From an uncultured Desulfobacterales bacterium (GTDB lineage Bacteria > Myxococcota_A > UBA9160 > JAFDET01): a stretch of 64,000 nt of DNA. The stretch is taken from assembly GCA_964194905.1 (NCBI GenBank), contig CAXMOD010000119.1:6813-70812 (forward strand), read 5' to 3'. The position numbers and the translations under genes are program-made. Under the pieces are notes generated by a model that was not told where the DNA came from, did not search any database, and saw nothing but the letters and a program-made list of their open reading frames with translations. Below, in pieces: positions 30,240 to 45,784 of this stretch; position 1 is the first letter of the stretch; every line of letters starts with the position of its first letter.

Positions 30240-30280
30240 GCTTCCGAGTCTAGCCCGGCGACCGCGGCACGATGGGCGTC

Positions 30281-31321
30281 CTAGCCCAGGCCGAGCCGCT
30301 CGAGGTCCTCCTCGGAAAGGCCGAGGTAGTGACCGACCTCGTGCTGCACCGTGATCTGGATCTGCTCGATCAGCTCCGCTTCGTCGCGGCACATCCTCTC
30401 GAGGTTGCGCTTGAACAGGATCACCTGGTCGAGGACGGGCTCCGGCTGCGAGACGCTGGCCTCGGTGCGCGGCACGCCGATGAAGATGCCCAGGATCTGG
30501 GGCGAGACGTTCTCTTTTTCGACCAGCTCGACGTCCGGGAAGTCCTGGACGAGGACCGGCACGTTGGCCACGTAGTCGCGGATGGAGCGCGGCAGGTTGC
30601 GTAGCGCTGCCTCGGTGGCCTGGTCGAAGGCCTCCGCGCCGATGGCGGTGGGAAGCGGATAGTGGTCGGGGTCCAGCGCGTCGGCCCGCTCGAAGCAGCG
30701 GCTCACATCGTTCTCGTCAGCGCCCACCCGCTCCAGCGAGAGGGCCAGGTGGTAGACGGCGTGGCTCGACTCCGGCTCCATGGCCACGGCGCGCTCCAGC
30801 GGCCGACGGGCCTCCTCGAAGGAGCCCATCTCGAAGAGGATCTGGCCCTCGAAGGCCCGGTAGATGGCCTGCTCGCCGCCCGCCTTGAGCGCGCGGCGCA
30901 CCAGGAAGAGCGCCCCTTCCAGATCGTCCAGGTAGAAGAGCGCCTTGCTCTTCAGGTAGAGGACCTCCGCCTCCATCGTGCGATCCGGCCGCGGCAGCTC
31001 CTCGCTGCCCGCGAGCAGGCGGTCGCAGTGGTCGATGGCCTGCTCGTGCTCGCCGAACTCCTCCACCAGAAGCTCTGCGCGGTTCAGGTGGGCCGTCGTG
31101 AACTTGGGATCCGCCTCGAGCGCGCGCTCGAACTCGTGCAGCGCCTGCTCCACACGGCCTTCGTCCCACAGGATCTCGCCGCGACCGTTGTGGGCCTCGG
31201 CGCCGTCGGGATGCTCCTGCAGCGCCTGATCGAGCCATGCCAGCGCGGCGTCGGTCCGCCCTTCCTGGGCGGCCGTCATCGCCTCATCGAGGCAGTCCCA
31301 GTATCGATCCTTGTCGCGCAT
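30281..31321 (-). CDS. TPR-repeat protein fused to a minimal zincin (DUF1025-type) metallopeptidase domain
   Basis: 346 aa. The N-terminal ~230 aa are TPR units. The C-terminal part reads ILGIFIGVP...ITVQHEVGHYLGLSEEDLERLG (HExxH). Confidence 0.8.
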   Translation of the reverse strand: MRDKDRYWDCLDEAMTAAQEGRTDAALAWLDQALQEHPDGAEAHNGRGEILWDEGRVEQALHEFERALEADPKFTTAHLNRAELLVEEFGEHEQAIDHCDRLLAGSEELPRPDRTMEAEVLYLKSKALFYLDDLEGALFLVRRALKAGGEQAIYRAFEGQILFEMGSFEEARRPLERAVAMEPESSHAVYHLALSLERVGADENDVSRCFERADALDPDHYPLPTAIGAEAFDQATEAALRNLPRSIRDYVANVPVLVQDFPDVELVEKENVSPQILGIFIGVPRTEASVSQPEPVLDQVILFKRNLERMCRDEAELIEQIQITVQHEVGHYLGLSEEDLERLGLG

Positions 31322-32323: not shown

Positions 32324-32749
32324 ATGGCGGCCTTCGGTGAGTCTTGGAGGAGGAATCGGGTGGAGTGGGTGGCCATCGTGACCGGGCTGGTGCTGGCCGA
32401 GTACGTGTTCTTCATGATGCACACGGGCATGGCCCGGGGGCGCCATGAGGTCCCCGCTCCCTCCACCACCGGCAACCCCGATTTCGAGCGCAGCTTCCGG
32501 GCCCAGGGCAACACCGTCGAGCAGCTCATCGTGTTTCTGCCCGCGCTCTGGCTCTTCGCCCACTATGTCTCGGCCCCGCTGGCGGCCCTGCTGGGGCTCA
32601 CCTTCGGTGTGGGCCGAGCGCTCTACTGGCGGGGCTACGTGATGAACCCGCCGCGCCGCGGCCCGGGCTTCCTGATCGGACTGATCGCCTCCTCCATCCT
32701 GCTGCTCGGTGGAATCCTGGGCGCCCTGGTCGCAGCACTGTCCGCGTGA
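32324..32749 (+). CDS. MAPEG-family membrane protein (microsomal GST-like)
   Basis: ORF 32243..32749 trimmed to ATG 32324. 141 aa with 3-4 TM segments, plus RAQGNTVEQLIVFLP and VGRALYWRGY, both typical of MAPEG. Its stop overlaps the next start (GTGA). Confidence 0.7.
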   Translation: MAAFGESWRRNRVEWVAIVTGLVLAEYVFFMMHTGMARGRHEVPAPSTTGNPDFERSFRAQGNTVEQLIVFLPALWLFAHYVSAPLAALLGLTFGVGRALYWRGYVMNPPRRGPGFLIGLIASSILLLGGILGALVAALSA

Positions 32750-34146
32750 ACCCCTCACGCACCGAGCGCATCCTCCGCATCTTCACCGATGTGAAGCCCG
32801 GCGAGGCCACCACCGCTCTGGTGATGTTCGCCAACGTCTTCCTGATCCTGTGCGCGTACTACCTGATCAAGCCGTTGCGCGAGGGCTGGATCGCCATCTC
32901 GGACGTGAGCGGCCTCTCGAAGATGGAGGTGAAGGCCTACTCCGCCTTCGGGCAGAGCGTGCTGCTCCTCGTGGTGGTGCGCTACTACGGACGGCTCGCG
33001 GCGCGCGTGAACCGGGCGCGCCTCATCGCCGGCGCCACGCTGTTCTGCATGAGCAACATGCTGGTCTTCTGGGCGGTCCAGCCGGACTTCTTCCTGCGCC
33101 ATCTGCCCGGCCCCGGCGTCGCCTTCTACCTGTGGGTGGGCATGTTCGGGGTCTTCATCGTGGCGCAGTTCTGGACCTACGCCGCTGACCTCTACGACGA
33201 CGAGCGCGGCAACCGGCTCATACCCATGATCGCGATCGGCGCCACGGCCGGAGGCGCGTTCGGCTCCCAGATCACCGAAACGCTGGTGGGCAGCGGGCTC
33301 GTCCCCACGAAGTGGCTGCTCATCGCGGCGATGGTGCCGCTCTCGCTTTCCATGCTGCTCACGCTCTGGGCCGAACGGCGCGGGCCGCTGGGAGCGGGGC
33401 CCGAGCCCTCGGAAACCGGACCCGCGGCGCCCGGACCCGGCCTGGGGGAGGCGGGCGGCTCGCAGCGCGAATCGCTCTCCACGGTGCTCAGCAACCGCTA
33501 CCTGCTGATGGTGGCGATCATCACCCTGCTCATGAACTGGGTGAACACCAACGGCGAGAACGTGCTCTACCGGGTGGTGCAGGAGGCGCTCGCAGGCGAC
33601 GCGCTCGCCCAGGGCATCACCGACCCCGTGGAGATCCGAGCCTTCACCCAGGACCAGACTACGCTGTTCTACAGCAACTTCTTCCGCTGGGTGAACTGGG
33701 TCGCGCTGCTCCTCCAGGCGCTGGTGGCCTCCAGGCTGCTGAAGTACGGGGGCTTCGGGGCGATCCTGATGCTGCTCCCGGCGATCGCGCTGGTCTCGTA
33801 CGGCGTGATGGCCCTCCTGCCGGTCATGGCTGTGATCAAGCTCATGAAGGTCGCGGAGAATGGAACCGATTACTCCATCAACAACACCGCGCGCCACGTG
33901 CTGTGGCTCCCGGTGCCGACCGAGATGAAGTACAAGGGCAAACCAACCGTGGATACGCTGTTCGCGCGGCTGGGCGACGGCGCGGCAGCGCTGACGGTGC
34001 TGGTGGGCGAGCGACTGCTGGGCCTGCCCACGAAGGGCTTCCTGGCCTTCACCGTGCTGCTCGTGCTGCTGTGGATCGGCCAGGCCGCGCCGGTGATCGC
34101 CGAGAACCGGCGCCTGTGCCGCGAGGCCGGGATCGACAATGGCTAG
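32746..34146 (+). CDS. NTT/TLC-like (Npt1/Npt2 family, ATP/ADP-translocase-like) MFS carrier
   Basis: 466 aa with about 12 TM segments. The N-terminal VKPGEATTALVMFANVFLILCAYYLIKPLREGW matches the TLC-family opening helix pattern. Confidence 0.8.
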   Translation: MNPSRTERILRIFTDVKPGEATTALVMFANVFLILCAYYLIKPLREGWIAISDVSGLSKMEVKAYSAFGQSVLLLVVVRYYGRLAARVNRARLIAGATLFCMSNMLVFWAVQPDFFLRHLPGPGVAFYLWVGMFGVFIVAQFWTYAADLYDDERGNRLIPMIAIGATAGGAFGSQITETLVGSGLVPTKWLLIAAMVPLSLSMLLTLWAERRGPLGAGPEPSETGPAAPGPGLGEAGGSQRESLSTVLSNRYLLMVAIITLLMNWVNTNGENVLYRVVQEALAGDALAQGITDPVEIRAFTQDQTTLFYSNFFRWVNWVALLLQALVASRLLKYGGFGAILMLLPAIALVSYGVMALLPVMAVIKLMKVAENGTDYSINNTARHVLWLPVPTEMKYKGKPTVDTLFARLGDGAAALTVLVGERLLGLPTKGFLAFTVLLVLLWIGQAAPVIAENRRLCREAGIDNG

Positions 34147-35152
34147 GGGCCGCAGCTCGAGGGCGTGCGCCTGTCTGCTCGCGGCGGCCGTGCTGGCCCT
34201 GGCGCCGCCCGCGCTGCCGGCGCGCGCGGAGTCCGCCGAGGGCTCGGACGACTACGATCTCTTCGACGACCCGCGACTCGAACAACTGCGCCGCCTCGAC
34301 CGGATCGCTCCGTTCGAGGACCCCGCACCGCTCTGGGACTACGTGGATGACGGGCTCGAGTCCGACGTCCGCAAGGCGCTCGACACTCTCGGCCTCAGCG
34401 CTGCCGTGCGGCGCCAGAAGCTCGCGGTGGTGCTGGTGGACATCAGCAAGGTCAGAAGGCCCCGCGTCGCGTCGATCAACGGCGACACCATGCTCTACGC
34501 CGCGAGCCTGCCCAAGATCGCAGTGCTGCTCGGCGCCTTCGAGAAGATCGCCGAGGGGCGCATGCCCGACGATGCGGAGACCCAGCGCCAGCTGGTGAAC
34601 ATGATCCGCGTATCGTCGAACGCGTCCGCCACCCACATGATGAATCGCGTAGGCAAGGACTACATCGCGCGCACGCTCCTCTCGCCGCGCTACCGGCTCT
34701 ACGACCCGGACCACAACGGAGGCCTGTGGGTGGGCAAGGACTACGGCAAGGCCGGCCTGTGGAAGCGCGACCCCCTCCACAACCTCTCCCATGGCGCCAC
34801 GGCCATGCAGGTTGCGCGCTTCTACTACATGATGCAGACGGGAAAGCTCGTGACGCCCGAGTACAGCGCGCGGATGAAGGAGATCCTCTCCGACCCGGCC
34901 TTGTACCACAAGTTCGTAGGCGCGCTGATGCGGGTGAACCCCGCGGCCACGCTCTTCCGCAAGTCCGGCACGTGGCGCACGTTCCACGCGGACAGCGTTC
35001 TGGTCGAGCGTGGGCGTCACGCCTACATCGCCGTGGCCCTGGCCGACTCCTCGGAGGGCAGCCGCTGGATGAAGGAGATCATCGTCGCCCTGGACGGGAT
35101 CGTCTTCGGCAAGAGCTGGCTGCACCGCCTGGCGGGCTGGCCCCGGCGTTGA
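34139..35152 (+). CDS. Secreted class-A beta-lactamase-fold serine hydrolase
   Basis: 337 aa. Signal peptide (CLLAAAVLALAPPALPARA), S-x-x-K (ASLPK), S-x-N (VSSNAS) and K-S/T-G (RKSGTW). The ATG overlaps the NTT stop by 8 nt. Confidence 0.8.
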   Translation: MARGRSSRACACLLAAAVLALAPPALPARAESAEGSDDYDLFDDPRLEQLRRLDRIAPFEDPAPLWDYVDDGLESDVRKALDTLGLSAAVRRQKLAVVLVDISKVRRPRVASINGDTMLYAASLPKIAVLLGAFEKIAEGRMPDDAETQRQLVNMIRVSSNASATHMMNRVGKDYIARTLLSPRYRLYDPDHNGGLWVGKDYGKAGLWKRDPLHNLSHGATAMQVARFYYMMQTGKLVTPEYSARMKEILSDPALYHKFVGALMRVNPAATLFRKSGTWRTFHADSVLVERGRHAYIAVALADSSEGSRWMKEIIVALDGIVFGKSWLHRLAGWPRR

Positions 35153-36574
35153 TCAGGGGCGCGAGGGTGCTTCCATGTCCGTGCCGTCCGGCATCTGGTT
35201 CATCACCTCGGCGTCGTCCGGGATGTCGTCCTCTTCCATCGGTTGATCCGCGAGGATCTCCTCGGCGCTGCGCTGCGGCTTCGCCTCCTCGCCCTCCAGC
35301 GGGTGCCGCGACTCGATCAGCTGGTGCACCTGGGTCCCCAACAGGCGGTGCGCCTCCGATGAGTTCTTGCGCAGCACGTTGGAGAGGACCACGGCGATGT
35401 AGTGGAGCTTCTGCTTCTGATCGACGCTCTCCACCATGGTCACTGAGTTCATGAAGTTGCGGACGTTACCCTTGTACTTCTCGCAGTGGAAGCCCTTCTC
35501 GGGCCTGCAGCCGTACCAGGAGCCGGACTTGAAGTAGATGGCGTAGTCCCAGAGCACCGGCGTGGACCCGTAGCGAATGCGCTTGTCGGTGATGTACAGA
35601 AGCTTCTTCATCTTCAGGCTCGACCATTCGTCGATCAGCTTGCCTTGCTCTGCGAGCAGCATCACACGCAACAACTCCTGGGCGCTGGCGTGACTCGAGA
35701 TGCCCGGGATGCGTCCCTTGCCGGTGCGGGTGAAGAGGCTGCCCTGACGGAGCTGGGCGGGGTCGAGCCCACTCCCCGTCGTGCCGCGCTTCATCGCCTC
35801 GATGAAGATCGCGCCCAGCCGCGACTTGGGCGTGCCCTTCAGGAACGCGTTCGCCGCCTCGGGGCTGGACGGGTACGCGGTGCCGAAGTGCTTGAGCAGC
35901 ACGAGTTCCTTCTGGAGCACCGCAGCACCGGCGTTGGAGCTGGTGGAGAGCATCCAGTCGAGCCAGGTATACAGGTTGGCGGTGTCGCCGAGGGCGATGG
36001 GCCGGCGGATGTACTGGCGGTCGCCCGGCGCCCAGAAGGGCACGTTGTGGGAGTCGCGTACGATGTATTCGTCCGCGGTCACCTGGGTCTCGCGCAACAC
36101 CCGGTGGCGCGCGTCCACATCGTCCGGGTACAGGTCGGCCAGCGCCTGGAACCAGGCGAGGCCCACCATGATCTTTCCCACGCTCCCCGGATTCTGCAGC
36201 TTGGTGGGGTTCCAGGCCGCGTAGGCCGGTGCGTCGGGGTCGGACAGATCGAGGATCGCCACGCCGTACGCGTCGGCGTCCGCCCCCAGCAGCTCCCGCA
36301 CCTGGCTGGTGAAGCGGGCGTGGCGCTGCGGCAGAGTGAACTCCGGGCGGTCCAGCATGCGCAGCTTCAGTTCCTTGCTGTAGAGCTGTGCTCCCCAGTA
36401 CAGGATGATCCCGGGGATCACACCGTCCTGCGCCAGCTTGTAGGCCTCCAGCCGCGCAATGCCCGTCTCCGGGTAGGCGTCCAGCGGATAGGCGTAGGCG
36501 CCGCCCGCGGCGAGTCCGGCCAGCAGCAGTGCAGCGAGCGCAACGCCCGCAAGGAAGGGCCTGGACCGACCCAC
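35153..36574 (-). CDS. Secreted beta-lactamase-fold serine hydrolase with acidic C-terminal tail
   Basis: 473 aa with a GTG start immediately after the dikinase TAG. Signal peptide (FLAGVALAALLLAGLAAGGAYA), GSVGK (SxxK), STSSNAG (SxN) and FKSGSW (KSG). The tail EEDDIPDDAEVMNQMPDG is acidic. Confidence 0.75.
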   Translation of the reverse strand: MGRSRPFLAGVALAALLLAGLAAGGAYAYPLDAYPETGIARLEAYKLAQDGVIPGIILYWGAQLYSKELKLRMLDRPEFTLPQRHARFTSQVRELLGADADAYGVAILDLSDPDAPAYAAWNPTKLQNPGSVGKIMVGLAWFQALADLYPDDVDARHRVLRETQVTADEYIVRDSHNVPFWAPGDRQYIRRPIALGDTANLYTWLDWMLSTSSNAGAAVLQKELVLLKHFGTAYPSSPEAANAFLKGTPKSRLGAIFIEAMKRGTTGSGLDPAQLRQGSLFTRTGKGRIPGISSHASAQELLRVMLLAEQGKLIDEWSSLKMKKLLYITDKRIRYGSTPVLWDYAIYFKSGSWYGCRPEKGFHCEKYKGNVRNFMNSVTMVESVDQKQKLHYIAVVLSNVLRKNSSEAHRLLGTQVHQLIESRHPLEGEEAKPQRSAEEILADQPMEEDDIPDDAEVMNQMPDGTDMEAPSRP

Positions 36575-39532
36575 CTAGTGCCCCTTCGCCACGTCGCCGA
36601 GATCGACCTTGGCGGAGCCTCCGACCGAGGCGTCGAGCTCGAGGAGGTGGGTGTTGCGCCGCGCGGACTTGTTCTCCACGAAGGGGCGCAGCTGGAGCAG
36701 CGCGAGCTTGCCGTCCTTGAACGCGAACTCGATGTCGGCGGGCCGGTTCTCCCCGCCTTCGCGCAGGCTTGGGAATTTGTCCGGGGCCTTGCGCGCCAGA
36801 TCGACGAGCTGGGCGATCTCGCCTTCGGCGAGGATGGTCTCCGTCCCCGAAGCGGGCCGCTTCACCACGCCGCCGTTCCCAGAGAGCAAGGTACGACTCG
36901 GCGCCGTAGCGCGCGCCAGGTAGATCACCTCGGACCCGTCCGCGCGCACCGCGAGGGACTCGGTCGCCTGACCGTCGACGGCGCCGCCCACGCCTTCGTT
37001 CACCGCCACCGACAGCCATTTGCGACTGCCCGTGTCCACGTCGGCCGTCACCATCACGCCCGACTTCTCCGCGGCAAAGCCCAGCTGCACGACCACCGCC
37101 GGAAATACGTACTCGGGATCCTCCATGTGGGACTGCCGCCAGCTGTACGCCCGCTCGCTGAACGGCGACGCCCACACTTCACGCACGGCCGTCGAAATGC
37201 CCTTCACGCCCACCACGTTGGGAACGGTCTTGTTGAGTCCCGCTCCGGTGAAGCCGGCCAGGTCTTCCACGTTGGTGTCGCTGCGTACGAAGACGCCGTA
37301 CGTGCCGTCCTTGCCGAAGGTCTTCTTCAGCATGGCGACGAGGCGGCGGTCGAAGTCCTCGCCGAGATCGGCTTCGGTCAGCCAGGTGCGCAGGCGTGAC
37401 AGGAACTCGTTCACAACGCGCTTCTGGGCCTCGGGCCGATCCTCCATGCGAGTGATGAGCCCGTAGCGCGCACGCATCCAGTCCCACACCGAGAGTCCGT
37501 CCGGCTCGATGGGCTGGTCCAGAAGCTCGCGGAACACGCCGAACGGGATGACGAAGCCGGCGGGCACCGTTTCCCCGAAGTTGTGGCGCAGCTCTCCGAG
37601 GTTGGCGCCTTTGGGGCCGGACAGGCGCCCGGAGTCGCTGGCGCGCAGATCGTCGAGCGACACGAAATCCTTCACCGAAAGGTCCAGCTGCTCGAGGTCC
37701 GGCCGGATCACCACTTCGTCACCGGGCTCGACCGACTTGCCGATCGTCTTCTTCGTGCCGAACACGGCGTCCCACTCGGGCCCGTCCTTCTCGAGCTGCA
37801 CCACGCCGCCGGGCGAGACCGCGAGCACCACGTGCTGGCCCACGTTGCGCTGAACCGCCGGCAGCAGCGACTCGCGAACCACGACGTTCGGGATGCCCAG
37901 GTTGCGCGCGAGGAGCTGAACGTGGGAGAGCGAGCTGCCCTCGCCGCGGGTCAGGATGCCCGACACCGGCGGCAGCTCGGAGACCGTCTCCGGCAGGAGG
38001 TAGATGCCGTCGCGCCGCAGCGACTCCACGTGGCCGCCGCTGGGCACGAGCAGCGTCCCGCGGGCCAGGCCCGGATTGAGTGCGCGCAGACCCGCGCCGG
38101 CGCGCTTGCCGAACATGCGGTGCTCGATGCCGGCCACGCGGTTCGCGTCGTTGACCAGGCCATCGAGGTTGGCGCCGTAGAAGAGCAAGGGGCTGCCGCG
38201 CAGGCGGTCCTGGGGATAGAGGTGGGAAACAGGCTCGATGGCGGCCCATTTCTCCACGACGTCGCCGAAGTGGAAGCGCACCCAGCGATCGGCCCACTCC
38301 GGCGCGCGCCCCAGGTAGCGCAGTTCCTTGCGGTAGGCGTCCACCTTCAGCTTGCGGTTCGCCTCGAGCCGGTCGAGCGAAGCTTCGAGGCCGCTCAGCT
38401 GGCGCTCGCCGATCAGACCGGCGCCGTACAGTCCGCCGGCCGCGGTGCGCAGCCACTCGAGGCGGGTGCGTCGATCCGCGCCCGCAAGGCGGGCGACCAG
38501 CGTGTTGCCCGCCGCGTACGCCTCGTCCTCCATCGCCAGGCTGGCCATCAGCAGCACGTGACCGCGGGCCACCGAGGTGGTGGCCCCGATGCGTGCCCGG
38601 TACTCGCGCAGCAGCCGGCATGCCTCGGCGTAGCGCGCGTCGGTCGTACCGGCGGCGGCCAGGGCCTCGGCGTCCTCGCGAAGCAGGCCGGCGACGGACG
38701 ACTCGCCCGTGCCCTGCGCCTTCTGGGCCAGGGCGCGCAGCTCGTCCGGCCCCGACTGCGCCGAGTAGAGCTCATCGATGGCGCCGGCGAGGCGCGCGTA
38801 CAGCTCGGTGGCCCCCGGCTTGCCGCGCTGTGCGGCGTGGTCGCGCACAGCCTTGGCATCCGCCGCGGAAGGCGCGTTGTGGATCTTGGCACGCAGCTTG
38901 TTGAAGCCCGAGTCCGCGTTGGCCACCTCGATGGCGAGCTCCCGCACTTCCATGGCGGTGGCGCCGGCCAGCTCGCGCGGGAGCAGCCGCACCGTCTCTC
39001 GCAGCAGGTAGAAGCGCACCTCGCTGCGCCACCCCGGATCGGCGAGCAGGGCATCCAGCACGCGGCGCGTGCCGGCCTCTTCGTCCTCGACCTGGAGCGC
39101 GCCGCGATACGAGAGAGCACCGCGGAAGATCCAGCCGTCGTCCATGCCGATCAGGAATCGCTCCAGCAGGATCTGCTTCAGCTGGTCGAGATCCGCCGAC
39201 TTCCCGACGAAGGTCTTCCCTTCGAGGCGCGCCAGCACGTTGCCCAGCGTGTACCCGCCCTTGCGCATGGCGACCACGCGGTCGTTCCACTGGCCGTGCT
39301 GTATGCCGCCGCCGTGCTTGGCGCAGGCGAAGGCCTTGGGCGGCTGCACGCTGTCATCGTTGCAGAACCAGCGGATGCGGATGAAGGGACCCTTGGGAGA
39401 GGCCTTCATTTCGGTCACCCAGGTCCGCAGCTTCTCGGGCGGAGGGAGGGCGGCGAGGGCCGATGAGGCCGCTGCGAGCAATAGGACGAGAGCCAGGAAC
39501 ACGGGTGCCAGCGGGGGGCGCGATTCGATCAT
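36575..39532 (-). CDS. PPDK/PpsA-type dikinase-like protein with N-terminal signal peptide. Domain order: unknown ~500-aa domain, then swivel phospho-His domain, then C-terminal ATP-grasp (PPDK_N). No PEP/pyruvate TIM barrel.
   Basis: ORF 36575..39793 trimmed to ATG 39532 (MIESRPPLAPVFLALVLLLAAASSALA|AL). The swivel motif is GILTRGEGSSLSH(537)VQLLARNLGIPNVVV, with the His codon at 37922-37924. The ATP-grasp reads GPKGANLGEL...VFVRSDTNVEDLAGFTGAGLNKT...VREVWASPFSERA...ADIEFAFKDGKLALLQLRPF. Confidence 0.8.
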   Translation of the reverse strand: MIESRPPLAPVFLALVLLLAAASSALAALPPPEKLRTWVTEMKASPKGPFIRIRWFCNDDSVQPPKAFACAKHGGGIQHGQWNDRVVAMRKGGYTLGNVLARLEGKTFVGKSADLDQLKQILLERFLIGMDDGWIFRGALSYRGALQVEDEEAGTRRVLDALLADPGWRSEVRFYLLRETVRLLPRELAGATAMEVRELAIEVANADSGFNKLRAKIHNAPSAADAKAVRDHAAQRGKPGATELYARLAGAIDELYSAQSGPDELRALAQKAQGTGESSVAGLLREDAEALAAAGTTDARYAEACRLLREYRARIGATTSVARGHVLLMASLAMEDEAYAAGNTLVARLAGADRRTRLEWLRTAAGGLYGAGLIGERQLSGLEASLDRLEANRKLKVDAYRKELRYLGRAPEWADRWVRFHFGDVVEKWAAIEPVSHLYPQDRLRGSPLLFYGANLDGLVNDANRVAGIEHRMFGKRAGAGLRALNPGLARGTLLVPSGGHVESLRRDGIYLLPETVSELPPVSGILTRGEGSSLSHVQLLARNLGIPNVVVRESLLPAVQRNVGQHVVLAVSPGGVVQLEKDGPEWDAVFGTKKTIGKSVEPGDEVVIRPDLEQLDLSVKDFVSLDDLRASDSGRLSGPKGANLGELRHNFGETVPAGFVIPFGVFRELLDQPIEPDGLSVWDWMRARYGLITRMEDRPEAQKRVVNEFLSRLRTWLTEADLGEDFDRRLVAMLKKTFGKDGTYGVFVRSDTNVEDLAGFTGAGLNKTVPNVVGVKGISTAVREVWASPFSERAYSWRQSHMEDPEYVFPAVVVQLGFAAEKSGVMVTADVDTGSRKWLSVAVNEGVGGAVDGQATESLAVRADGSEVIYLARATAPSRTLLSGNGGVVKRPASGTETILAEGEIAQLVDLARKAPDKFPSLREGGENRPADIEFAFKDGKLALLQLRPFVENKSARRNTHLLELDASVGGSAKVDLGDVAKGH

Positions 39533-39586
39533 GGGCCGGAGGATAGACCCCCAAACGGGCCCGGGGGTAGCCCCAGCCGAACTCCG

Positions 39587-39595
39587 TGATAGGGT
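39587..39595 (+). promoter_or_regulatory. Extended -10 TGaTAGGGT, 7 nt upstream of the ATG at 39603 (leaderless candidate)
   Basis: cgTGaTAGGGTgcgctcgATG read directly in the 70-bp divergent region. Confidence 0.35.
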
Positions 39596-39602
39596 GCGCT
39601 CG

Positions 39603-42600
39603 ATGCTGCGCCGAATCGGCATCCGGCCTGGAGAACTTCCCATCGTAGGGTGGGCGGCCCTGACCCTCTTTTTGCTGGGCTGGGCGGACGTCTCGATGAA
39701 GAACGTCTCGGAGGTGTTCTTCGCGAAGCGCGTCGGCGTGGAATTCTTTCCCGCCGCCTTCCTGCTGAGCTCGCTCCTGCTGGTGGGGACCACCTACCTG
39801 GTGGCGGGGCTCGCCGGCCGCACGGACCGGGTCCGCCTGCTCCCCAAGCTGCTGCTGGGACTGGCGGTGTCCCTGCTGCCCTTGTGGTTGCTGCTGCGAA
39901 CCGGCCACGTGGTGGGAGCGGCTCTCCCGCTCTTGCTGAGCAAGCAGGTGGAATCGATCGCGCTGATCTCCTTCCTGCTCGCCCTGGGCGACCTCCTCCA
40001 CCAGCGCCAGAGCAAACGCCTGCTGGCGCCGCTGATGGCGGGCATGACGCTCGGCTACATGTTGGGGAGCTTCGCGTCGGACCCGATCGCGGACGTGCTC
40101 GGGATCGACGGACTGCTGCCGTTCTCTTCGGGGGTGATGGCCCTCGCCGCGCTGTGCGCGCTCCCGCTGCGCAACGTGGGGCGTCCGCGCCTGGCCGGCG
40201 AGTCCGGCGCCGGCCCCGAGGTGCCGACCCTCGCGCCTCTACCCGTGGCGGCGCGCAGCGAGGCCACCGGCGTGCGCCGCCTGTGGCGCGAGAGCCAGCT
40301 GTTCCGGTTGCTGGCGCTGCTCACCGCCTTCAACGCGCTGCTCGGACCCATGCTCTACTACCAGTTCCAGTACGTGGCCGACATCGCCACGGCCGGAACC
40401 GACGGAGAAGATCGGCTGCTCGCCATCTACGCGCAGTTCCGCGGCTGGATCAGCGTCGGCATCCTGGTGATCCAGCTCGGCCTGGCCTCGAACCTGTTCA
40501 AGCGCATCGGCCTGCCACTGGCCGCGGCCATCTCGCCCGTGGTCTATCTGCTGGGCTTCGCGGGCCTCTCCATCCAGCTCTCGCTCACGGCGGGCGTCGC
40601 CGCCCTCGCGGGAACCAAGCTGGTCGACGACGCCGTCTTCGACCCGGCCCTGCGCGTGCTCTACAACCTCTTCCGCGAGGGCATCCGCGCGCGCGCCAGT
40701 GCGCTCCTCGAGGGACCGGTGAAGCGGATGGGCGGCGTCGTCGGAAACGTGCTCACCCAGGCCGCCATCGCCTTCGGTGGCGCGGGGCTCGTCGGGTTCC
40801 TGGCCCTGCCGGCCGCGGCCGCCTGGGCCGGGGTGGCCATCCTGCTCTGGCGCATCTACCCCAGGCTCCTGCTGGGCGCCGCCGGCACGCGGGGCGCGCG
40901 CGGCCTTGATCCCCTGCCGATCAGCGAGCTGCTCGACCGCGGCACCGAACGCCTGCTGGCGCAGCAGCTCGTGAGCCCCGACCCCGAAGTCTGCCGCGTA
41001 GCCATGGACCTGTGTGCCGAAGCCGATCCCCTGCGTGCGGTGGGCGGATTCGCGCGGGCGGCGGGGCAGGCACCCGAGACGACGCGGCCGTTGTTGGTCC
41101 TGGGTCTCGACCGCCTGCTCGAGGCGGCCGTCGCCGACCCCATCACCAGCCGCGACGCCGCCGAAGACCTGGTTCCGCTGCTCGCCCGCGACGAGGTGCG
41201 GGGCTTGGAGCGCGCCAACCTCGTTCAGGCCTACGGTCGCCTGACCCTCAGCCAGCCAGCCCCGGAAGACCGGGCGCTCCTGGAGGAAGCGCTGGCCTCG
41301 CCGGAGGCGGCGGTACGCCTGGCCGGGCGCACCGCTCTCCACCGCCGCGGGGAGGAGAGCGAAGCGACGATCGCCCAGACACTTTCCGAGGCCGTGGCCG
41401 GCGAGGATCCGGACGAGCGTCACATTGCGCGCGAAGAGCTGCGCGCGTTGCTCCTGCAGCACTCGCCCGAGACCGACGGTCCGGCATTCGATGCGCGCGC
41501 CGAGTTGCTGACCCGGCTTCTCGAGCGCCCCGCGGATCGCGCCGACGCGGCCGAGGCGCTCGCCGACGTGGTGCGCCACCACGGCGCGAGCGCCGTGAAG
41601 AGCGCCGAGCCCGTGCTGGCGCTGTGGGGCGACCCGGACCCCCGGGTGCGCGCGGCCGCGCTGATCTGCGCCGGCCACGGCGGTCTGCGCGAGCGCGCCC
41701 GCGCCGTGCTCGAGTGCATCGACGATCCCGACGAGCTGGTGGCCGCCGCCGCGCACGAAGCCGTGCTGGCTCTCGGCACAGCCGCGGCGGACGTACTGCT
41801 CGTGGAGCTGAGCTACGGCCGGCGCAGCCGCCGCGAGGCCATCCTGCGCCTCGTGCGCGAGATCGAGGTGGGCCAGACGGCCCTGCGGGCGTTGTACCTG
41901 CGCGAACTCCAGGAGGTGCACCGCACGCTGTTCAACCGCGCGGTCCTCGATTCCGCCGACCTCTCGCCCATCGTCCTACAGCGGCTCGACGAACGCCTGG
42001 ATGAGGGCCTGCACGCGCTGCTCCAGCTGCTGTCCGCCCTGCACGATCAGGAGTCGCTCGGCGACGTGGGTTCCCAGCTGCGCCGCTCCCGCGACCCGCG
42101 CCGCCGCGCCATCTTCATCGAGGCGATCGAGGCCTTGCTGGAGGGCGAGGAACGCCGCGCCATCGTCCCGCTTCTGGAGGACCGACCCCTGCGCCACCGC
42201 GCAGAGGCCATCGCGTCGTCCCGGGGCATGCCTCTCCCGCCGATGGACATCGCGCTCGACAGCCTGCGGGACGACCCGGACGAGCTCACCCGCATCCTCG
42301 CAAACGCCGGTCAGAGGCGGCCGCTGGCCGCCGCCGGAGATCTCGGGGATCATGCGGCGATGCTCGAACCCGTGGAGGTCGCACTCTATCTCCGCAAGAC
42401 GCCTCTCTTCGAAAGCCTCTCCACGCGCAACCTCATGGAGATCGCCAGCGTCACCCGCGAGGAGCGTCTCGCGGCGGAGGACATGCTCTTCCGCGAAGGC
42501 GAGAGCGGCACCGCCATGTATCTCATCGTGGCCGGCCGCATCCGCATCGTGCACGGTGAAACGACCGTCGCCGAACTCGGACCCGAACAGTTCTTCGGCG

Positions 42601-42782
42601 AGATGGGGATGCTGGAAGGGCTGGAGCGCTCTGCCGCGGCGATCGCTGCGTGCGACGTGCATCTGCTGCGGCTGGAGCGCGACGACCTGCTCGCGCTGAT
42701 GGAGGAACTCCCGGCGATCGCGATCGGCGTGGCGCAGGAACTGTCGCGGCGCCTCCGCCAGGCGACCGAACAGATCGCCTAG
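39603..42782 (+). CDS. Tripartite protein: NTT/TLC-like carrier domain + HEAT/ARM repeats + C-terminal cyclic-nucleotide-binding domain
   Basis: Track ORF 39069..42782 trimmed to ATG 39603 (MLRRIGIRPGELPIVGWAALTLFLLGW...NVSEVFFAKRVG). About 12 TM segments in the first ~430 aa. HEAT-like repeats follow (DPDPRVRAAALICAGHGG, DDPDELVAAAAHEAVLALG). The cNMP domain reads LRKTPLFESL...FFGEMGML...ERSAAAIA. Confidence 0.8.
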   Translation: MLRRIGIRPGELPIVGWAALTLFLLGWADVSMKNVSEVFFAKRVGVEFFPAAFLLSSLLLVGTTYLVAGLAGRTDRVRLLPKLLLGLAVSLLPLWLLLRTGHVVGAALPLLLSKQVESIALISFLLALGDLLHQRQSKRLLAPLMAGMTLGYMLGSFASDPIADVLGIDGLLPFSSGVMALAALCALPLRNVGRPRLAGESGAGPEVPTLAPLPVAARSEATGVRRLWRESQLFRLLALLTAFNALLGPMLYYQFQYVADIATAGTDGEDRLLAIYAQFRGWISVGILVIQLGLASNLFKRIGLPLAAAISPVVYLLGFAGLSIQLSLTAGVAALAGTKLVDDAVFDPALRVLYNLFREGIRARASALLEGPVKRMGGVVGNVLTQAAIAFGGAGLVGFLALPAAAAWAGVAILLWRIYPRLLLGAAGTRGARGLDPLPISELLDRGTERLLAQQLVSPDPEVCRVAMDLCAEADPLRAVGGFARAAGQAPETTRPLLVLGLDRLLEAAVADPITSRDAAEDLVPLLARDEVRGLERANLVQAYGRLTLSQPAPEDRALLEEALASPEAAVRLAGRTALHRRGEESEATIAQTLSEAVAGEDPDERHIAREELRALLLQHSPETDGPAFDARAELLTRLLERPADRADAAEALADVVRHHGASAVKSAEPVLALWGDPDPRVRAAALICAGHGGLRERARAVLECIDDPDELVAAAAHEAVLALGTAAADVLLVELSYGRRSRREAILRLVREIEVGQTALRALYLRELQEVHRTLFNRAVLDSADLSPIVLQRLDERLDEGLHALLQLLSALHDQESLGDVGSQLRRSRDPRRRAIFIEAIEALLEGEERRAIVPLLEDRPLRHRAEAIASSRGMPLPPMDIALDSLRDDPDELTRILANAGQRRPLAAAGDLGDHAAMLEPVEVALYLRKTPLFESLSTRNLMEIASVTREERLAAEDMLFREGESGTAMYLIVAGRIRIVHGETTVAELGPEQFFGEMGMLEGLERSAAAIAACDVHLLRLERDDLLALMEELPAIAIGVAQELSRRLRQATEQIA

Positions 42783-42787
42783 GCGAC

Positions 42788-43558
42788 CTAGCTGCCGTCC
42801 GACCTGGCGAGCACGCGCACCAGGTAGTTTCCGCGGCGCTCGTCCAGGTCCAGGTCCACGAGCCCGCGCTTCGAGAGGTCTTCGAGAAGCGCGGCGAAGG
42901 AATCGTATCCGAAATACTGCTCGTTGAAGCTCGGGTACACGCGGCGCACCGTCTGCTTGACCATGGATCCCCAGACCTGGTCGTAGTCGCGTTCGAGCGA
43001 CTGGACGATCTCCATGACCTGTTCGACGCCCTCGTCCTTCTTGCTGGGCTTCTGGTTTTGACCCCGGCTGCGCTTGCGCGGGGCGTCGGCGGCCTTGACC
43101 AGGTCGTCGTAGTAGATGAACTCGTCGGCGGCGGCGATGAGCAGATCCGACGTGGAGGCCTTCACGCCGCAGGCGATGACGCGCTTGTCGTTCTCCTTGA
43201 GCTTGGAGACCAGCGGTGAGAAGTCGCTGTCGCCCGACAGGAGCGCGAATTGATCGATGTGCTGCTTGGCGTAACAGAGATCGATGGCGTCTACGACCAT
43301 GCGGATGTCGGCGCTGTTCTTGCCCGACACCCGAGTGGCCGGCACGTCCACCACCTCAATGCCGTGCTTGTGGAACGCGCGCGCCTCGGCGCGGTAGTCC
43401 GACCAGTCGCAGTAGGCGCGGCGGAAGACCAGGCGCCCCTTCTCCAACAGGCGCTTCAGAACCAGCTCGACCTTGAAGCTACCGAGGCGGCTCTTGCGCG
43501 CGCCGATGGCCAGGTTCTCGAAGTCGACGAATACGGCGATGAGCGGTTCGCTGGCCAC
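42788..43558 (-). CDS. NYN (LabA/DUF88) ribonuclease-like domain + OST-HTH/LOTUS domain protein
   Basis: 256 aa. The NYN core is IAVFVDFENL...GKNSADIRMVVD...LLSGDSDFSPLV. The C-terminal OST-HTH-like region is WGSMVKQTVRRVYPSFNEQYFGYDSFAALLEDLSKRGLV. Confidence 0.85.
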   Translation of the reverse strand: MASEPLIAVFVDFENLAIGARKSRLGSFKVELVLKRLLEKGRLVFRRAYCDWSDYRAEARAFHKHGIEVVDVPATRVSGKNSADIRMVVDAIDLCYAKQHIDQFALLSGDSDFSPLVSKLKENDKRVIACGVKASTSDLLIAAADEFIYYDDLVKAADAPRKRSRGQNQKPSKKDEGVEQVMEIVQSLERDYDQVWGSMVKQTVRRVYPSFNEQYFGYDSFAALLEDLSKRGLVDLDLDERRGNYLVRVLARSDGS

Positions 43559-43655
43559 GGCGGTCTCCCGGCCGGCACGATAGCAGAACCCACCACCGCC
43601 AAGACGAACCCCCGCCGCCGTCGTCGGGGTCTATACTCCGGCCGGGGAGGTACCC

Positions 43656-43904
43656 ATGAGCAGATGGATCATCGCGACGGCCGCGCTGGCGCTCGCCTTG
43701 GGCTGCGCAGGGAGCGGCGCCCGTTGGGAGCGTCCGGGGAACAGCCCCGAGCAGCTCGAGCGCGACCAGAACGACTGCATGAACAAGGCCACCATCGGGG
43801 GCGATCCCGGCTCATCCGATCCCAATGTGCTGGCGCGCGCCCAGAAGGACTACGAAAACTGTCTCATGCGCAGGGGCTACAAGCTCACCGTCCCCGACAA
43901 ATAG
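43656..43904 (+). CDS. Small lipoprotein (82 aa)
   Basis: Lipobox LALALGC. GGGGAGG lies 5 nt upstream of the ATG, and TATACT is at 43632-43637. Confidence 0.65.
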   Translation: MSRWIIATAALALALGCAGSGARWERPGNSPEQLERDQNDCMNKATIGGDPGSSDPNVLARAQKDYENCLMRRGYKLTVPDK

Positions 43905-43905
43905 G

Positions 43906-44673
43906 CTACTTCTTCGTCGGCTGGCGGATGTTGATGGAGAACTGCGGCGCGTAGCCGCCGGGCAGGTCGAAGGAGCCCTTCGGGAAGACCTTCTGCTTCA
44001 GGCTCGTCACGGTCGTCTCGCTCTCGAACTGCCCGGACTCGTAGGTGCGCACGCGCATCGGAATCCCGTCGAGCCGCGCGAACGACTCGATCACCGCCGC
44101 GCCCTCCGCGCGAGCGTCCGACGGCATCAGGGCGGTGACCGAACTCCCCAGGAGCTGCTCCAGGTCGCGCACCGCCTCGAAGCTCTCGCGCTCCACATTG
44201 GCGTCGGCATAGCTGGCGCGGCACACATCGGCGATGCGCACGCCGGCCGCCAGCACCTGCAGCTCCGCGCAGGGGATGCCCCGGACGCTGCCGCGGCGGC
44301 CGGTGTCCTTGATCTCCACCCCGCCGGACAGGCCGGCCTCTGCGAGCGCACGCTGGTCCGGCGACAGCGAGTCCATGCGCGCCTTCGCCTGGCCGGCCAG
44401 GGCCTCCGCGGTCGGTCGCTCCACCTCGATGAAGTTCTTGTGCTTGTGATCGAGCACCCAGAGCAGGCCGCGGTCACCGCGGTACACGATGGCGCGCCGC
44501 CCGCCCGCCGTCTCCACACGCATGCGCATGCCGTCGAACAGGGCCGTGCCGGCCCGGGTGCTGCCGTCCGGCCTGCGGGTCTCGGTGAGCACCTCGGTCC
44601 CGGCCGCAGCCGGCAGTGTCACCAGCAACACGGCCAACGCGAAGAACACGGCCAACATAGATCGGGCACTCAC
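43906..44673 (-). CDS. Secreted protein, DUF4412-like
   Basis: 255 aa with signal peptide MLAVFFALAVLLVTLPAAAG. The GTG start overlaps the upstream stop (GTGA). The family call is tentative. Confidence 0.6.
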   Translation of the reverse strand: MSARSMLAVFFALAVLLVTLPAAAGTEVLTETRRPDGSTRAGTALFDGMRMRVETAGGRRAIVYRGDRGLLWVLDHKHKNFIEVERPTAEALAGQAKARMDSLSPDQRALAEAGLSGGVEIKDTGRRGSVRGIPCAELQVLAAGVRIADVCRASYADANVERESFEAVRDLEQLLGSSVTALMPSDARAEGAAVIESFARLDGIPMRVRTYESGQFESETTVTSLKQKVFPKGSFDLPGGYAPQFSINIRQPTKK

Positions 44674-45773
44674 GGCGTACTCCAGGCGGCGACGGGATCG
44701 AACAGCACCGCCGGACGGCGGTACTCCTGGTCGAGCAGATAGAAATACATCACGGCCATGGAATCCTGGTCTACCCCGCTGGTGTTGTCGTAGACGCTCA
44801 CGATCTCGTACTCGTGGGTGGCGTAGAGGGGAATTCCCTCGGCGCTCGAGAAGTAGTCCACATGGGCGAGCCCAATGCCCGCCTCCGGCGGCCGCGCGTG
44901 GCTCTTGAAGAGCGTCTCGCCTGTGGTGAGGTCGCGAAGCGTGAGCGACTCGGCGAACGGGTGCAGGTGCACGGCGATGTAGTGCAGGGTGGTGTCGAAG
45001 GGCAGGTTGATCCAGCGCGTCACGTTCGTGCGGTTGACCTCGTGCCCGGGCTTCACCACCCAGTGGCCTGCGAACGTGCGGCCCTGGGCGTCCTCGATCA
45101 CACGCGCGCTGGCGTTCTCTCCGGGCAGACAGCCGGGTCCGTGCACCCCTTCCTCGGGCTCCTCGGTCGCGAAGAACCCCCGCTCGCCGTCGAGCGACAC
45201 GAGCCCTGCGGCCGCAGAAGGAAAGAGTGGGCGCATGGGCTCCTTCAGTTCGCGGTCGCGCACGTAGCGGATCGTGACATGGTGGCGAACCTGGAACTTC
45301 TCATCCGGGCGATTGTGATTTAGCACCTGGGTGGTGAGGTCGAGCTTCTCGGTGGAGAGGATGGGGACGCCGAACCCTTCGGGAAAGTCGATCTCGAACT
45401 GACCCTGGGAGAGCGTGAAGATGCGCGCGGCGGTCGTCTTGGTCCACCCGAAGAGCTGCCGGTGATTGTCGATGTCCAGGTCCAGATTGCTGTGACACAT
45501 GAACTCCTGGGACAGGGGCGTGCTGCCGTCCGCCGCCACCATGCGCGCCTCGTAGCCCACGATCCAGAGAAGCTCCGGGAAGAGGCTCTCCTCGATGCTG
45601 ACCTTCTGGGTGCTGTAGGGGCCGCGCATGGACTTGTACAGCTTGTCCACGTCGTACACGTCGGAAAGGATGGTCCGCTCGTGCACCGGAGGGCTCGCCT
45701 GGGCGAGCGCGGGGACGACGAGGCCGGCGACCAGGGCACCTGCGGCCAACCGGCGTCGGCAAGAAAGGAGCAT
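44670..45773 (-). CDS. Secreted protein with a possible PHM/DBH-like copper-monooxygenase C-terminal half
   Basis: 367 aa with signal peptide LVAGLVVPALAQA. H269-x-H271 (AVHLHPF) and DSM339AVM342YFY lie about 70 residues apart, resembling the CuM site of peptidylglycine monooxygenase. The N-terminal His pattern (H94, H164-H165) does not match cleanly. Confidence 0.55.
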   Translation of the reverse strand: MLLSCRRRLAAGALVAGLVVPALAQASPPVHERTILSDVYDVDKLYKSMRGPYSTQKVSIEESLFPELLWIVGYEARMVAADGSTPLSQEFMCHSNLDLDIDNHRQLFGWTKTTAARIFTLSQGQFEIDFPEGFGVPILSTEKLDLTTQVLNHNRPDEKFQVRHHVTIRYVRDRELKEPMRPLFPSAAAGLVSLDGERGFFATEEPEEGVHGPGCLPGENASARVIEDAQGRTFAGHWVVKPGHEVNRTNVTRWINLPFDTTLHYIAVHLHPFAESLTLRDLTTGETLFKSHARPPEAGIGLAHVDYFSSAEGIPLYATHEYEIVSVYDNTSGVDQDSMAVMYFYLLDQEYRRPAVLFDPVAAWSTP

Positions 45774-45784
45774 GGCGCCCGAGT

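Follow-up and report, generated by a model that had tools for sequence, protein, structure and literature searches.

The subject of this report is a set of six adjacent genes lying within a 64,000-nucleotide stretch of DNA (contig CAXMOD010000119.1 of assembly GCA_964194905.1, from an uncultured Desulfobacterales bacterium that GTDB places in the Myxococcota_A), which is referred to throughout as the window. Among them are genes for a dikinase bearing a signal peptide, for two further exported proteins of the beta-lactamase fold (here hyd1 and hyd2) and for a polytopic membrane carrier that probably belongs to the TLC/NTT family of nucleotide transporters (carrier 1), and comparison across related loci indicates that these four make up a deeply conserved module; the remaining two encode a second carrier (carrier 2) and a MAPEG-family membrane protein. 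The components all come from known superfamilies; what has no described counterpart is the architecture of the dikinase, its export and its pairing with NTT carriers. As to what the module does, the reading preferred here is that it acts at the cell envelope, the carrier exchanging nucleotides, the dikinase using ATP in the periplasm and the serine enzymes handling its substrate, and on the sequence evidence assembled below we would put the chances of this being so at about even. The broader proposition, that free-living diderm bacteria of the Myxococcota and of part of the Gammaproteobacteria carry out an ATP-dependent phosphorylation in the periplasm that is fed by dedicated ATP-exporting NTT/TLC carriers retrieving AMP or ADP, is advanced tentatively, with the balance tilting slightly against it.

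Reviews hold that the periplasm has no ATP (e.g. PMC7391070), and much of Gram-negative envelope biology rests on this, systems such as Tol-Pal, TonB, Bam, Lpt and Lol being explained as workarounds (e.g. PMC7391070). The module suggests that some bacteria may deliberately supply ATP to this compartment; if that is true, the rule of the ATP-free periplasm is not general.

Conservation of the gene neighbourhood

The evidence that these genes belong together comes from a census of 98 loci encoding relatives of the dikinase (43–85% identity), taken from GTDB genomes, JGI metagenomes and long contigs and denoted here by L numbers, in which open reading frames (ORFs) were classified using iterative hidden Markov models (HMMs) and the counting of partners was restricted to loci with enough flanking sequence. 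On this basis hyd2 is the next gene after the dikinase in 64 of 70 loci, hyd1 is convergent with them in 45 of 48, and a TLC-like carrier stands beside hyd1 in 35 of 38. The initial annotation of the window had raised the question of whether dikinase, hydrolase and NTT-like genes co-occur across genomes, and the dikinase, hyd1, hyd2 and a TLC-like carrier are indeed found together across phyla and through rearrangements. It had also pictured two NTT-like carriers as bracketing the module; here the adjacent TLC-like carrier stands as a general member, while the second, a fusion of an NTT-like membrane domain to HEAT repeats and a cyclic nucleoside monophosphate (cNMP)-binding domain, does not, being divergent from the dikinase in 15 of 47 loci, all of the type A layout described next. 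Carrier 2 is therefore a lineage-specific accessory.

In type A loci, which resemble the window, carrier 2 is divergent from the dikinase, the dikinase is followed by hyd2, and hyd1 and carrier 1 are convergent on these; the named genome records of this type are mostly metagenome-assembled genomes (MAGs) of Myxococcota or ‘Deltaproteobacteria’. In type B loci the dikinase is again followed by hyd2, with hyd1 convergent, and the TLC carrier is divergent from hyd1; the named genome records are in this case Gammaproteobacteria MAGs, the metagenome contigs of this type being untyped. The hosts, in both Myxococcota and Gammaproteobacteria, are uncultured marine and sediment bacteria. (Two loci of type A layout with 55–57% identical dikinases, L003 and L005, belong to MAGs that bear the names ‘uncultured Opitutales’ and ‘uncultured Spirochaetales’, which points to binning error or horizontal transfer.) Other loci are rearranged: L026 combines the dikinase with hyd1 and a TLC carrier, carrier 2 lying some 8 kb off; in L027 one TLC carrier is upstream and co-directional and a second is also present; L028 keeps its members around an inserted M23 peptidase and protein kinase; and L115 likewise keeps the member set. 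Both hydrolases and a TLC-like carrier also adjoin the dikinase in L110, L112 and L113, three of the most divergent members having enough contig flank (31–32% identity over the N-terminal domain of the dikinase).

It might be argued that all this reflects inherited synteny, with no functional link between carrier and dikinase. Many of the loci do come from related Myxococcota MAGs, and some sets of them also share housekeeping genes (ABC-F, PanB). The correlation between the pairwise divergences of the dikinase and its adjacent carrier (Mantel r 0.76, p 0.001) demonstrates long co-inheritance but, since any pair of genes inherited together would be expected to show it, does not in itself speak for function. 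Against this, the members are kept despite changed order or orientation (L026, L027, L028, L112, L113, L115), across two phyla and down to the 31–32% level of identity just mentioned; the flanking genes differ completely, being otherwise unrelated between lineages; and the translational coupling of carrier 1 to hyd1 (see below) indicates co-expression. Mere synteny is poorly compatible with these data, and we regard it as scarcely credible.

Clustering of all the other ORFs in the loci yielded no further universal partner. An ABC-F ATPase, PanB and an EipA-like protein were rejected as core partners, being present in sublineages only, as were a 5'-nucleotidase, PpnN, an M23 peptidase and an alpha-amylase (each confined to a single locus, counting duplicate copies as one) and, with no more than 4 loci, a class B acid phosphatase. 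The MAPEG protein, which the initial annotation had listed among the six adjacent genes, must also be set aside, as among the 98 related loci only L007, a close relative of the window, has a homologue. Some of the sporadic neighbours may still be worth recording. A 5'-nucleotidase C-domain protein (L027:17639-19210), a PpnN-type nucleotide nucleosidase (L112:12273-13643) and a class B acid phosphatase (L115:9463-10128, with homologues in L089, L098 and L104) are enzymes of nucleotide monophosphates whose presence beside the module fits AMP turnover, though none is conserved. In one Gammaproteobacterium an alpha-amylase-family gene lies directly upstream of the dikinase and co-directional with it (L011:8090-9829), and a GH31 glycosidase is found nearby in L028 (6984-8660); both are single cases, intriguing given that the domain order of the dikinase is like that of the plant glucan-water dikinase (GWD; see the final section).

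Turning to the window itself, its G+C content is about 70% and its six-frame ORF listing is full of spurious frames. Gene starts were set from start-codon context, third-position G+C and the N-termini of orthologues, and with the same starts the five proteins other than MAPEG are identical to independent gene calls in the public protein collection. The six genes and their junctions, as first annotated, were all found again in place (Table 1). The MAPEG gene and carrier 1 share a GTGA overlap; carrier 1 and hyd1 overlap by 8 nt and are translationally coupled; on the other strand the TAG of the dikinase is directly followed by the GTG of hyd2, which is likewise translationally coupled to it; and the divergent dikinase and carrier 2 genes are separated by a gap of 70 nt (39533-39602). 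Beside this gap, the sequence GATCATGG at 39528-39535 contains an ATG on both strands, that of the dikinase start (39532, - strand) and an in-frame ATG for carrier 2 (39531, + strand); a carrier 2 start at 39531 would make the two divergent genes overlap at their start codons, the public call being 39603.

Table 1 Genes of the locus and domains of the dikinase and carrier 2, in window coordinates (E-values are from Pfam matches).
Feature	Position	Strand	Size and basis
MAPEG-family membrane protein	32324-32749	+	141 aa; MAPEG 4.5e-21
Carrier 1, polytopic TLC/NTT-like membrane carrier	32746-34146	+	466 aa; TLC PF03219 1.3e-5
hyd1, predicted exported class-A beta-lactamase / PBP-A-like serine enzyme	34139-35152	+	337 aa; Beta-lactamase2 3.4e-12
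hyd2, predicted exported divergent beta-lactamase-fold serine enzyme	35153-36574	-	473 aa; motifs and Pfam matches of orthologues
Dikinase	36575-39532	-	985 aa; PPDK_N 3.9e-33 and PEP-utilizers 3.8e-5
Dikinase: signal peptide, aa 1-27	39452-39532	-	MIESRPPLAPVFLALVLLLAAASSALA then A; n-h-c organisation and AxA
Dikinase: N-terminal domain, aa 28-478	38099-39451	-	AlphaFold2 model; family HMMER search
Dikinase: swivel phospho-histidine domain, aa 480-590	37763-38095	-	PEP-utilizers 3.8e-5
Dikinase: C-terminal ATP-grasp, aa 610-985 plus stop codon	36575-37705	-	PPDK_N 3.9e-33
Carrier 2, NTT-HEAT-cNMP fusion	39603-42782	+	1059 aa; cNMP_binding 1.1e-18, weak HEAT_2, weak MFS_1
Carrier 2: NTT-like membrane domain	~39603-40892	+	hhalign to carrier-1 family
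Carrier 2: HEAT repeats	~41505-41762	+	HEAT_2 below cutoff
Carrier 2: cNMP-binding domain	42462-42704	+	cNMP_binding 1.1e-18

The dikinase and the two serine enzymes

Following its signal peptide, the dikinase consists of an N-terminal domain of about 450 residues having no Pfam match, a phospho-histidine domain and a C-terminal ATP-grasp domain. The Pfam families proposed initially for the genes of the locus hold (MAPEG, TLC, Beta-lactamase2, PPDK_N, PEP-utilizers and cNMP_binding), the hyd2 of the window being itself without a match. For the ATP-grasp domain the score is far over the threshold (PF01326, 115.5 bits, cutoff 27) and for the histidine domain it lies just above (PF00391, 23.6 bits, cutoff 23.1); the histidine motif aligns with the catalytic TSHAAIVSRELGIP motif of PpsA (8a8e), and both Pfam scores and this alignment, to the SHAAIVSRELGIP motif, place the protein in the swivel-histidine (PEP-utilising) dikinase superfamily. 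The catalytic residue, His537 (codon at 37922-37924), lies inside GEGSSLSHVQLLARNLGIP, and S536, H537, Q539, L541-N544, G546 and P548 are invariant among 55 sequences, as are K641 (in GPKGANLGEL), R750 (in RSDTNVEDL), D933/E935 and Q947/R949. The latter group align with the corresponding motifs of rifampin phosphotransferase (RPH) and PpsA, and we take them to be the equivalents of K22, R92, E323, Q335 and R337 of pyruvate phosphate dikinase (PPDK), which are ligands of ATP and Mg2+. Because the catalytic histidine and the equivalents of these ligands are all invariant, the dikinase appears to have everything required for ATP-dependent histidine pyrophosphorylation.

An AlphaFold2 model of the whole dikinase, made from 55 homologues, has a predicted local distance difference test (pLDDT) score of 85.7 and a predicted template-modelling (pTM) score of 0.85. 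When it was compared with the Protein Data Bank (PDB) using Foldseek only ATP-grasp domains were matched, foremost the ATP-binding domain of Listeria rifampin phosphotransferase (5hv1/5hv2/5hv6, E about 5e-14) and also PpsA (2ols) and HpeI. Modelled alone, the N-terminal domain reaches a pLDDT of 92.9, and is seen in the model to comprise a small beta unit containing Cys57 and Cys70 and a large all-alpha domain; Pfam gives no match anywhere within residues 1-478, and a profile search of the domain against PDB sequences gave nothing. It is presumed to be the substrate-binding domain. When 1.84 billion representatives were searched exhaustively using HMMER, the domain turned up in 570 clusters at 50% identity, and among the matches listed the full-length proteins are of roughly 920-1050 residues, with the domain beginning at around residue 25-75 given a leader; among these same matches no other context was found, the remainder being truncated fragments, and the domain is always N-terminal after any leader. 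This would define a new dikinase family of about that many clusters, whose substrate domain has a predicted novel fold.

Membership of several known families was considered and rejected. The protein is not a PpsA or PPDK proper, in which the ATP-grasp is followed by the histidine domain and then by a C-terminal PEP/pyruvate-binding TIM barrel: there is no PEP-utilizers_C match, the histidine domain precedes the C-terminal ATP-grasp, and with the NCBIfam PpsA models it reaches 95-105 bits where about 600-950 would be required. Nor is it a rifampin phosphotransferase (NF041857, 101.5 bits against a cutoff of 999, only the ATP-grasp being covered), the domain order again being different, since in that enzyme the ATP-grasp is N-terminal, the rifampin-binding domain central and the histidine domain C-terminal. 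For a glucan or phosphoglucan water dikinase (PWD) proper the starch-binding domains CBM45 or CBM20 would be looked for, and within residues 1-478 there is neither a Pfam match nor a fold match in the PDB. In general the NCBIfam equivalog scores of the dikinase, at around 100 bits against cutoffs of 600-1700, are roughly ten-fold too low.

The question of export was approached by way of hydropathy, charge and -1/-3 heuristics, together with conservation over 186 homologues of the dikinase and 57 orthologues of hyd2; the N-termini of hyd1 orthologues were inspected by hydropathy. In the window the dikinase begins with MIESRPPLAPVFLALVLLLAAASSALA, followed by ALPPP. Among the top 120 homologues the sequence of the leader varies while its character is kept, with a positive n-region, a short h-region and an Ala-rich c-region preceding a conserved mature start. 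An h-region is present in 179 of the 186 leader-bearing members, and the n-region is net-positive in 162 of these 179; leaders are found even in members of only 30-33% identity. Of 194 full-length family members 8 begin at an internal Met, and these starts were probably mis-called. The mature chains contain a median of two cysteines, which are the conserved pair C57/C70 (C57 invariant, C70 96%), and a Cys-poor mature chain with one conserved pair is a typical extracytoplasmic pattern. For hyd2 the predicted signal peptide comprises residues 1-28, with cleavage before a conserved YPLDG, and a leader is found in 57/57 orthologues (median 22 residues, A, G, S or T at -1, preceding YP[LIVM]D), while for hyd1 it comprises residues 1-30 and leaders occur in the orthologues also. 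Neither the RR motif of Tat export nor a lipobox was found in the proteins of the window. Because the leaders, which are of Sec type, are conserved across orthologues, export of the dikinase, hyd1 and hyd2 is well supported by these predictions. This is in keeping with the initial annotation, which had proposed a secreted dikinase and two secreted hydrolases and had itself pointed to a mis-called start or an N-in anchor as what would undo the proposal; the export signals proved to be conserved family-wide, and neither objection was borne out.

If the N-terminal segment of the dikinase were nevertheless an uncleaved anchor, the catalytic domains would remain in the cytoplasm and could use cytoplasmic ATP. 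The n-region of the window protein, which has a net charge of zero (E3, R5), would suit such an arrangement. On the other hand the net-positive n-region of most homologues, together with a short h-region and small residues at the predicted cleavage site, corresponds to an N-in orientation with the chain exported; the mature dikinase is depleted in Cys apart from its one conserved pair; and the gene is translationally coupled to hyd2, whose orthologues carry a textbook cleavable leader without exception. A cytoplasmic dikinase is thus poorly compatible with the leader data, and in our judgement highly improbable.

Both partner enzymes show the SxxK, SxN and KSG motifs, all three of which the initial annotation had named for hyd1 and the first for hyd2, and both keep them across orthologues. 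In hyd1 these are SLPK (34505-34516), SSN (34613-34621) and KSG (34961-34969), with S123xxK126, S159xN161 and K275/G277 invariant in 32 orthologues and S276 conserved in at least 90%. All 32 orthologues match the Pfam family Beta-lactamase2, as does the window protein (Table 1), and the closest solved sequence to the hyd1 profile is that of the cyanobacterial protein Tll2115 (2j7v, E 9e-4), which we take to be the class-A-like penicillin-binding protein (PBP) PBP-A. In hyd2 the motifs are SVGK (36173-36184), SSN (35933-35941) and KSG (35522-35530); S131xxK134, S212xN214, K349-S-G351 and C356 are invariant in 43 orthologues and C364 is conserved in 98%, the cysteines of hyd2 being exactly this conserved C356/C364 pair. 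Beta-lactamase2 is matched by 40 of the 43 orthologues, and no relative of hyd2 among solved structures was found by sequence or by profile.

Something of the likely site of action may be read from these partners. Two hyd2 orthologues (L085:6905-8491 and L104:8793-10307) carry a C-terminal PG_binding_1 domain (E 3e-13 and 4e-15), in place of which the window hyd2 has an acidic low-complexity tail (residues 425-473). This, the PBP fold of the two enzymes and the insertion of an M23 peptidase into the module at one locus (L028) all point weakly to the peptidoglycan layer, and peptidoglycan is thus weakly hinted at as the substrate of the dikinase.

The carriers and the proposed use of ATP in the periplasm

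Carrier 1 passes the Pfam threshold for the TLC family (PF03219, 24.6 bits, cutoff 21) over residues 241-416 only, and when compared with the whole PDB it matches just 9j3j (‘ADP,ATP carrier protein 1, chloroplastic’, E 2.8e-3) and 9j3n, both of which are NTT structures. Its orthologues mostly contain PF03219; JGI annotates them as ‘AAA family ATP:ADP antiporter’, and their NCBI name is ‘Npt1/Npt2 family nucleotide transporter’. The carrier of the type B layout is a more canonical TLC protein (PF03219 1.7e-14, NTT structures at 5e-7). In profile-profile comparison using hhalign the carrier-1 family is related to the type-B carriers with a probability of 99.9%, while for its relation to the carrier 2 membrane domain the probability is 98.2% (E 2.8e-14, 381 columns), so that all three may be taken as homologous. 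For carrier 2 Pfam gives no direct TLC match, reporting cNMP_binding (1.1e-18), MFS_1 (6.7e-4) and HEAT_2 (9.5e-5), the last at 23.1 bits being below its cutoff of 27.7 and the HEAT part accordingly weak; because the profile comparison ties its membrane domain to the carrier-1 family, carrier 2 can be assigned as a fusion of NTT, HEAT and cyclic-nucleotide-binding domains (NTT-HEAT-cNBD). This architecture is widespread in free-living bacteria, including Deltaproteobacteria, and is of uncharacterised function (Major et al. 2017, PMC5381601). Some 8.6 kb from carrier 2, at 51409-55080 (- strand), the window encodes a protein of 1223 residues with a double zinc ribbon, an adenylate/guanylate cyclase catalytic domain, AAA_16 and TPR, which could be a source of cyclic nucleotide for the carrier. 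Such cyclases are common in Myxococcota, however, and the closeness may mean nothing.

The idea that the carriers are exclusive to the module was considered and is not supported. Of three carrier-1 orthologues picked regardless of the dikinase, the first belonged to a module, another had a carrier-2 homologue as its sole partner and the third was by itself; as carrier-1 orthologues are thus found away from the dikinase, the role of the carriers appears to extend beyond the module. In the second of these cases (L114:8001-12672) the carrier-1 and carrier-2 (NTT-HEAT-cNBD) orthologues are convergent neighbours, and neither a dikinase nor a hydrolase is encoded within 8 kb of them, which suggests that the two carriers cooperate in a way that does not depend on the module.

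The scheme that we have in mind is as follows. The carrier or carriers would exchange adenine nucleotides across the inner membrane, ATP passing out and AMP or ADP back, and a membrane potential that is negative inside would tip the balance towards export of ATP, the more highly charged species. In the periplasm the dikinase would use the exported ATP to pyrophosphorylate His537 with release of AMP, after which the gamma-phosphate would go to water, the histidine domain would swivel to the N-terminal domain and the beta-phosphate would be passed to the substrate. The latter is probably wall-associated and possibly peptidoglycan-linked, and would be bound or processed by hyd1 and hyd2, by analogy with the way in which phosphorylation of starch by glucan-water dikinase lets hydrolases act. 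Where carrier 2 is present, its cNMP-binding and HEAT tail might couple nucleotide flux to a cytoplasmic cyclic-nucleotide signal. The computational checks put forward with the initial annotation all came out in its favour, and its interpretation is to that extent supported in part; delivery of ATP to the periplasm, which was its core, is in all this an inference.

Several points weigh against such a scheme. The match of carrier 1 to TLC is weak (24.6 bits, with TIGR00769 at 25 against a cutoff of 387), and to our knowledge characterised NTTs import nucleotides and do not as a rule carry AMP. Three loci (L008, L010 and L051) lack a carrier despite ample flank, the carrier-1 orthologues of L114 and L116 have no dikinase within 8 kb, and no further nucleotide-handling partner is consistently present among the census loci. 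The model of the N-terminal domain has no match in the PDB using Foldseek (best E 0.48, TM score below 0.2); the signal peptides were judged by the heuristics described above; and the Mantel correlation carries the ambiguity already discussed.

The first of these points lends itself to a different account, in which the module exists and its dikinase is placed in the periplasm, with the TLC-like carriers moving some other solute of the pathway, either importing the phosphorylated product or a released nucleotide-like or anionic compound, or exporting a precursor of the substrate, with ATP coming from leakage or from lysed neighbours. The scores of carrier 1, far under the equivalog cutoffs, and the occurrence of carriers without the module are consistent with this, as is the inclusion of NAD, S-adenosylmethionine and other-nucleotide carriers in the TLC family according to references listed in PMC5381601; moreover, nanomolar extracellular ATP has been reported, and has been invoked for the periplasm-targeted ligase Lig E (bioRxiv 10.64898/2026.03.22.713542). 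Nanomolar ATP is, however, far under typical ATP-grasp affinities, as the Lig E authors note for that enzyme. That an ATP-grasp enzyme should be paired almost obligatorily with such a carrier is also most simply seen as nucleotide supply, every characterised member of the family moving nucleotides or adenosine-containing cofactors. On balance we think a different solute rather unlikely.

A second account turns on scavenging: the exported enzymes would process extracellular or prey material, the carriers would import ATP, ADP or AMP as those of energy parasites do, and the dikinase would use prey or environmental ATP outside the cytoplasm. Myxococcota are generally known to include predators, all characterised NTTs are importers (PMC5381601), and nucleotide phosphatases of periplasmic type do occur sporadically (a 5'-nucleotidase in L027, a class B acid phosphatase in four loci). 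These phosphatases are not conserved partners, though, and the module is also present in MAGs of Gammaproteobacteria (Halioglobus, Thiotrichales) that are not known predators, while spending scarce external ATP on phosphorylation would be energetically odd. Scavenging accordingly seems to us improbable.

Should ATP export by the carriers prove correct, several consequences would follow. The co-encoded candidate carrier would be a genetic answer to the question of where periplasmic ATP comes from, and a genetically defined pair, comprising an exported ATP-grasp enzyme and its candidate carrier, makes periplasmic ATP supply directly testable. The ancestral or alternative role of what is thought of as an ‘energy-parasite’ translocase family would be to energise the cell envelope, which bears on the origin of the ATP/ADP translocases of Rickettsia, Chlamydia and plastids. 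Free-living bacteria have many NTT and NTT-HEAT-cNBD proteins that are uncharacterised (PMC5381601), for which a physiological role is also suggested, and the dikinase points to a possible new phosphorylated modification of the cell wall.

The wider surroundings of the locus may be dealt with briefly. Downstream of carrier 2 a block of four genes (42788-47221, - strand) encodes an NYN-domain protein, two proteins without a Pfam match (255 residues, 43906-44673, and 367 residues, 44670-45773) and an MltF-like lytic transglycosylase with SBP_bac_3 and SLT domains; it was rejected as part of the module, being syntenic only in the closest relatives L001, L007 and L012. Upstream of the module, at 26282-30392 (- strand), is a three-gene GlcDEF-like operon with two FAD-linked oxidase subunits and an Fe-S/CCG subunit, a glycolate/lactate oxidase representing ordinary housekeeping context. 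Two long ORFs, at 23289-26291 (+ strand, 1000 residues) and 8560-10419 (+ strand, 619 residues), have gene-like codon bias and no Pfam match.

Comparison with known systems

The initial annotation held the combination to be undescribed, and a search of the literature on periplasmic dikinases, periplasmic ATP, NTT-HEAT proteins, ATP export, and water dikinases with peptidoglycan found no description of the module or of an exported dikinase. The nearest approaches come from different directions. An older hypothesis paper collects scattered claims of ATP-dependent processes in the periplasm, and notes the common assumption that ADP/ATP transporters are absent from non-parasitic bacteria (PMC4289276); Major et al. 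describe NTT genes in free-living bacteria and propose no periplasmic ATP-supply role for them (PMC5381601); and for Lig E the source of ATP is called an outstanding question (bioRxiv 10.64898/2026.03.22.713542).

Lig E, like the module dikinase, requires ATP, bears a conserved signal peptide and belongs to a compartment regarded as ATP-poor; it differs in its genetic setting, where there is no syntenic co-localisation with DNA-repair genes (bioRxiv 10.64898/2026.03.22.713542). The module dikinase, in contrast, is almost invariably co-encoded with a candidate nucleotide carrier. We know of no carrier encoded beside Lig E.

Among the TLC/NTT transporters (Rickettsia Tlc1, Chlamydia Npt1, plastid NTT1) the family resemblance lies in carrier 1 exceeding the Pfam TLC threshold and finding only NTTs in the PDB, and carrier 2 has exactly the architecture of the NTT-HEAT-cNBD fusions already on record (PMC5381601). 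The module carriers are nonetheless very divergent from the characterised importers, their hosts are free-living, the direction proposed for them is export and exchange toward the periplasm, and no earlier report ties such carriers to an exported enzyme that consumes ATP. With the class A beta-lactamases and PBP-A DD-peptidases, hyd1 and hyd2 share the SxxK, SxN and KSG motifs, the Beta-lactamase2 family and signal peptides, but the relationship is very remote (hyd1 reaching 2j7v at the modest E-value given above, hyd2 having no PDB sequence match), and hyd2 has in addition about 100 extra residues and a conserved loop of disulfide type.

As regards the dikinase, the best matches of its ATP-grasp are to rifampin phosphotransferase and to PpsA/PPDK (5hv1, 5hv2, 5hv6, 2ols, 8a8e), with the swivel-histidine motif and the ligands of ATP and Mg conserved. 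It is, however, permuted with respect to these, the ATP-grasp being last rather than first, and it is exported and without either a rifampin-binding domain or a phosphoenolpyruvate (PEP)-binding barrel.

In the plant enzymes GWD and PWD the order is an N-terminal substrate-binding region, then the phospho-histidine domain, then a C-terminal PPDK_N ATP-grasp. The module dikinase has this same order, likewise with no PEP/pyruvate TIM barrel (as judged from Pfam and the AlphaFold2 model), and just as GWD works together with hydrolases on a polymer, so it is partnered with two proteins of hydrolase fold. There are clear differences: CBM45 and CBM20 are absent, the N-terminal domain being novel and mostly helical; the enzyme is bacterial and apparently Sec-exported, whereas GWD is plastidial, where ATP is available; and the partners are serine enzymes of PBP fold rather than amylases. 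The likeness to the plant dikinases is one of shared domains and of the order in which they occur.

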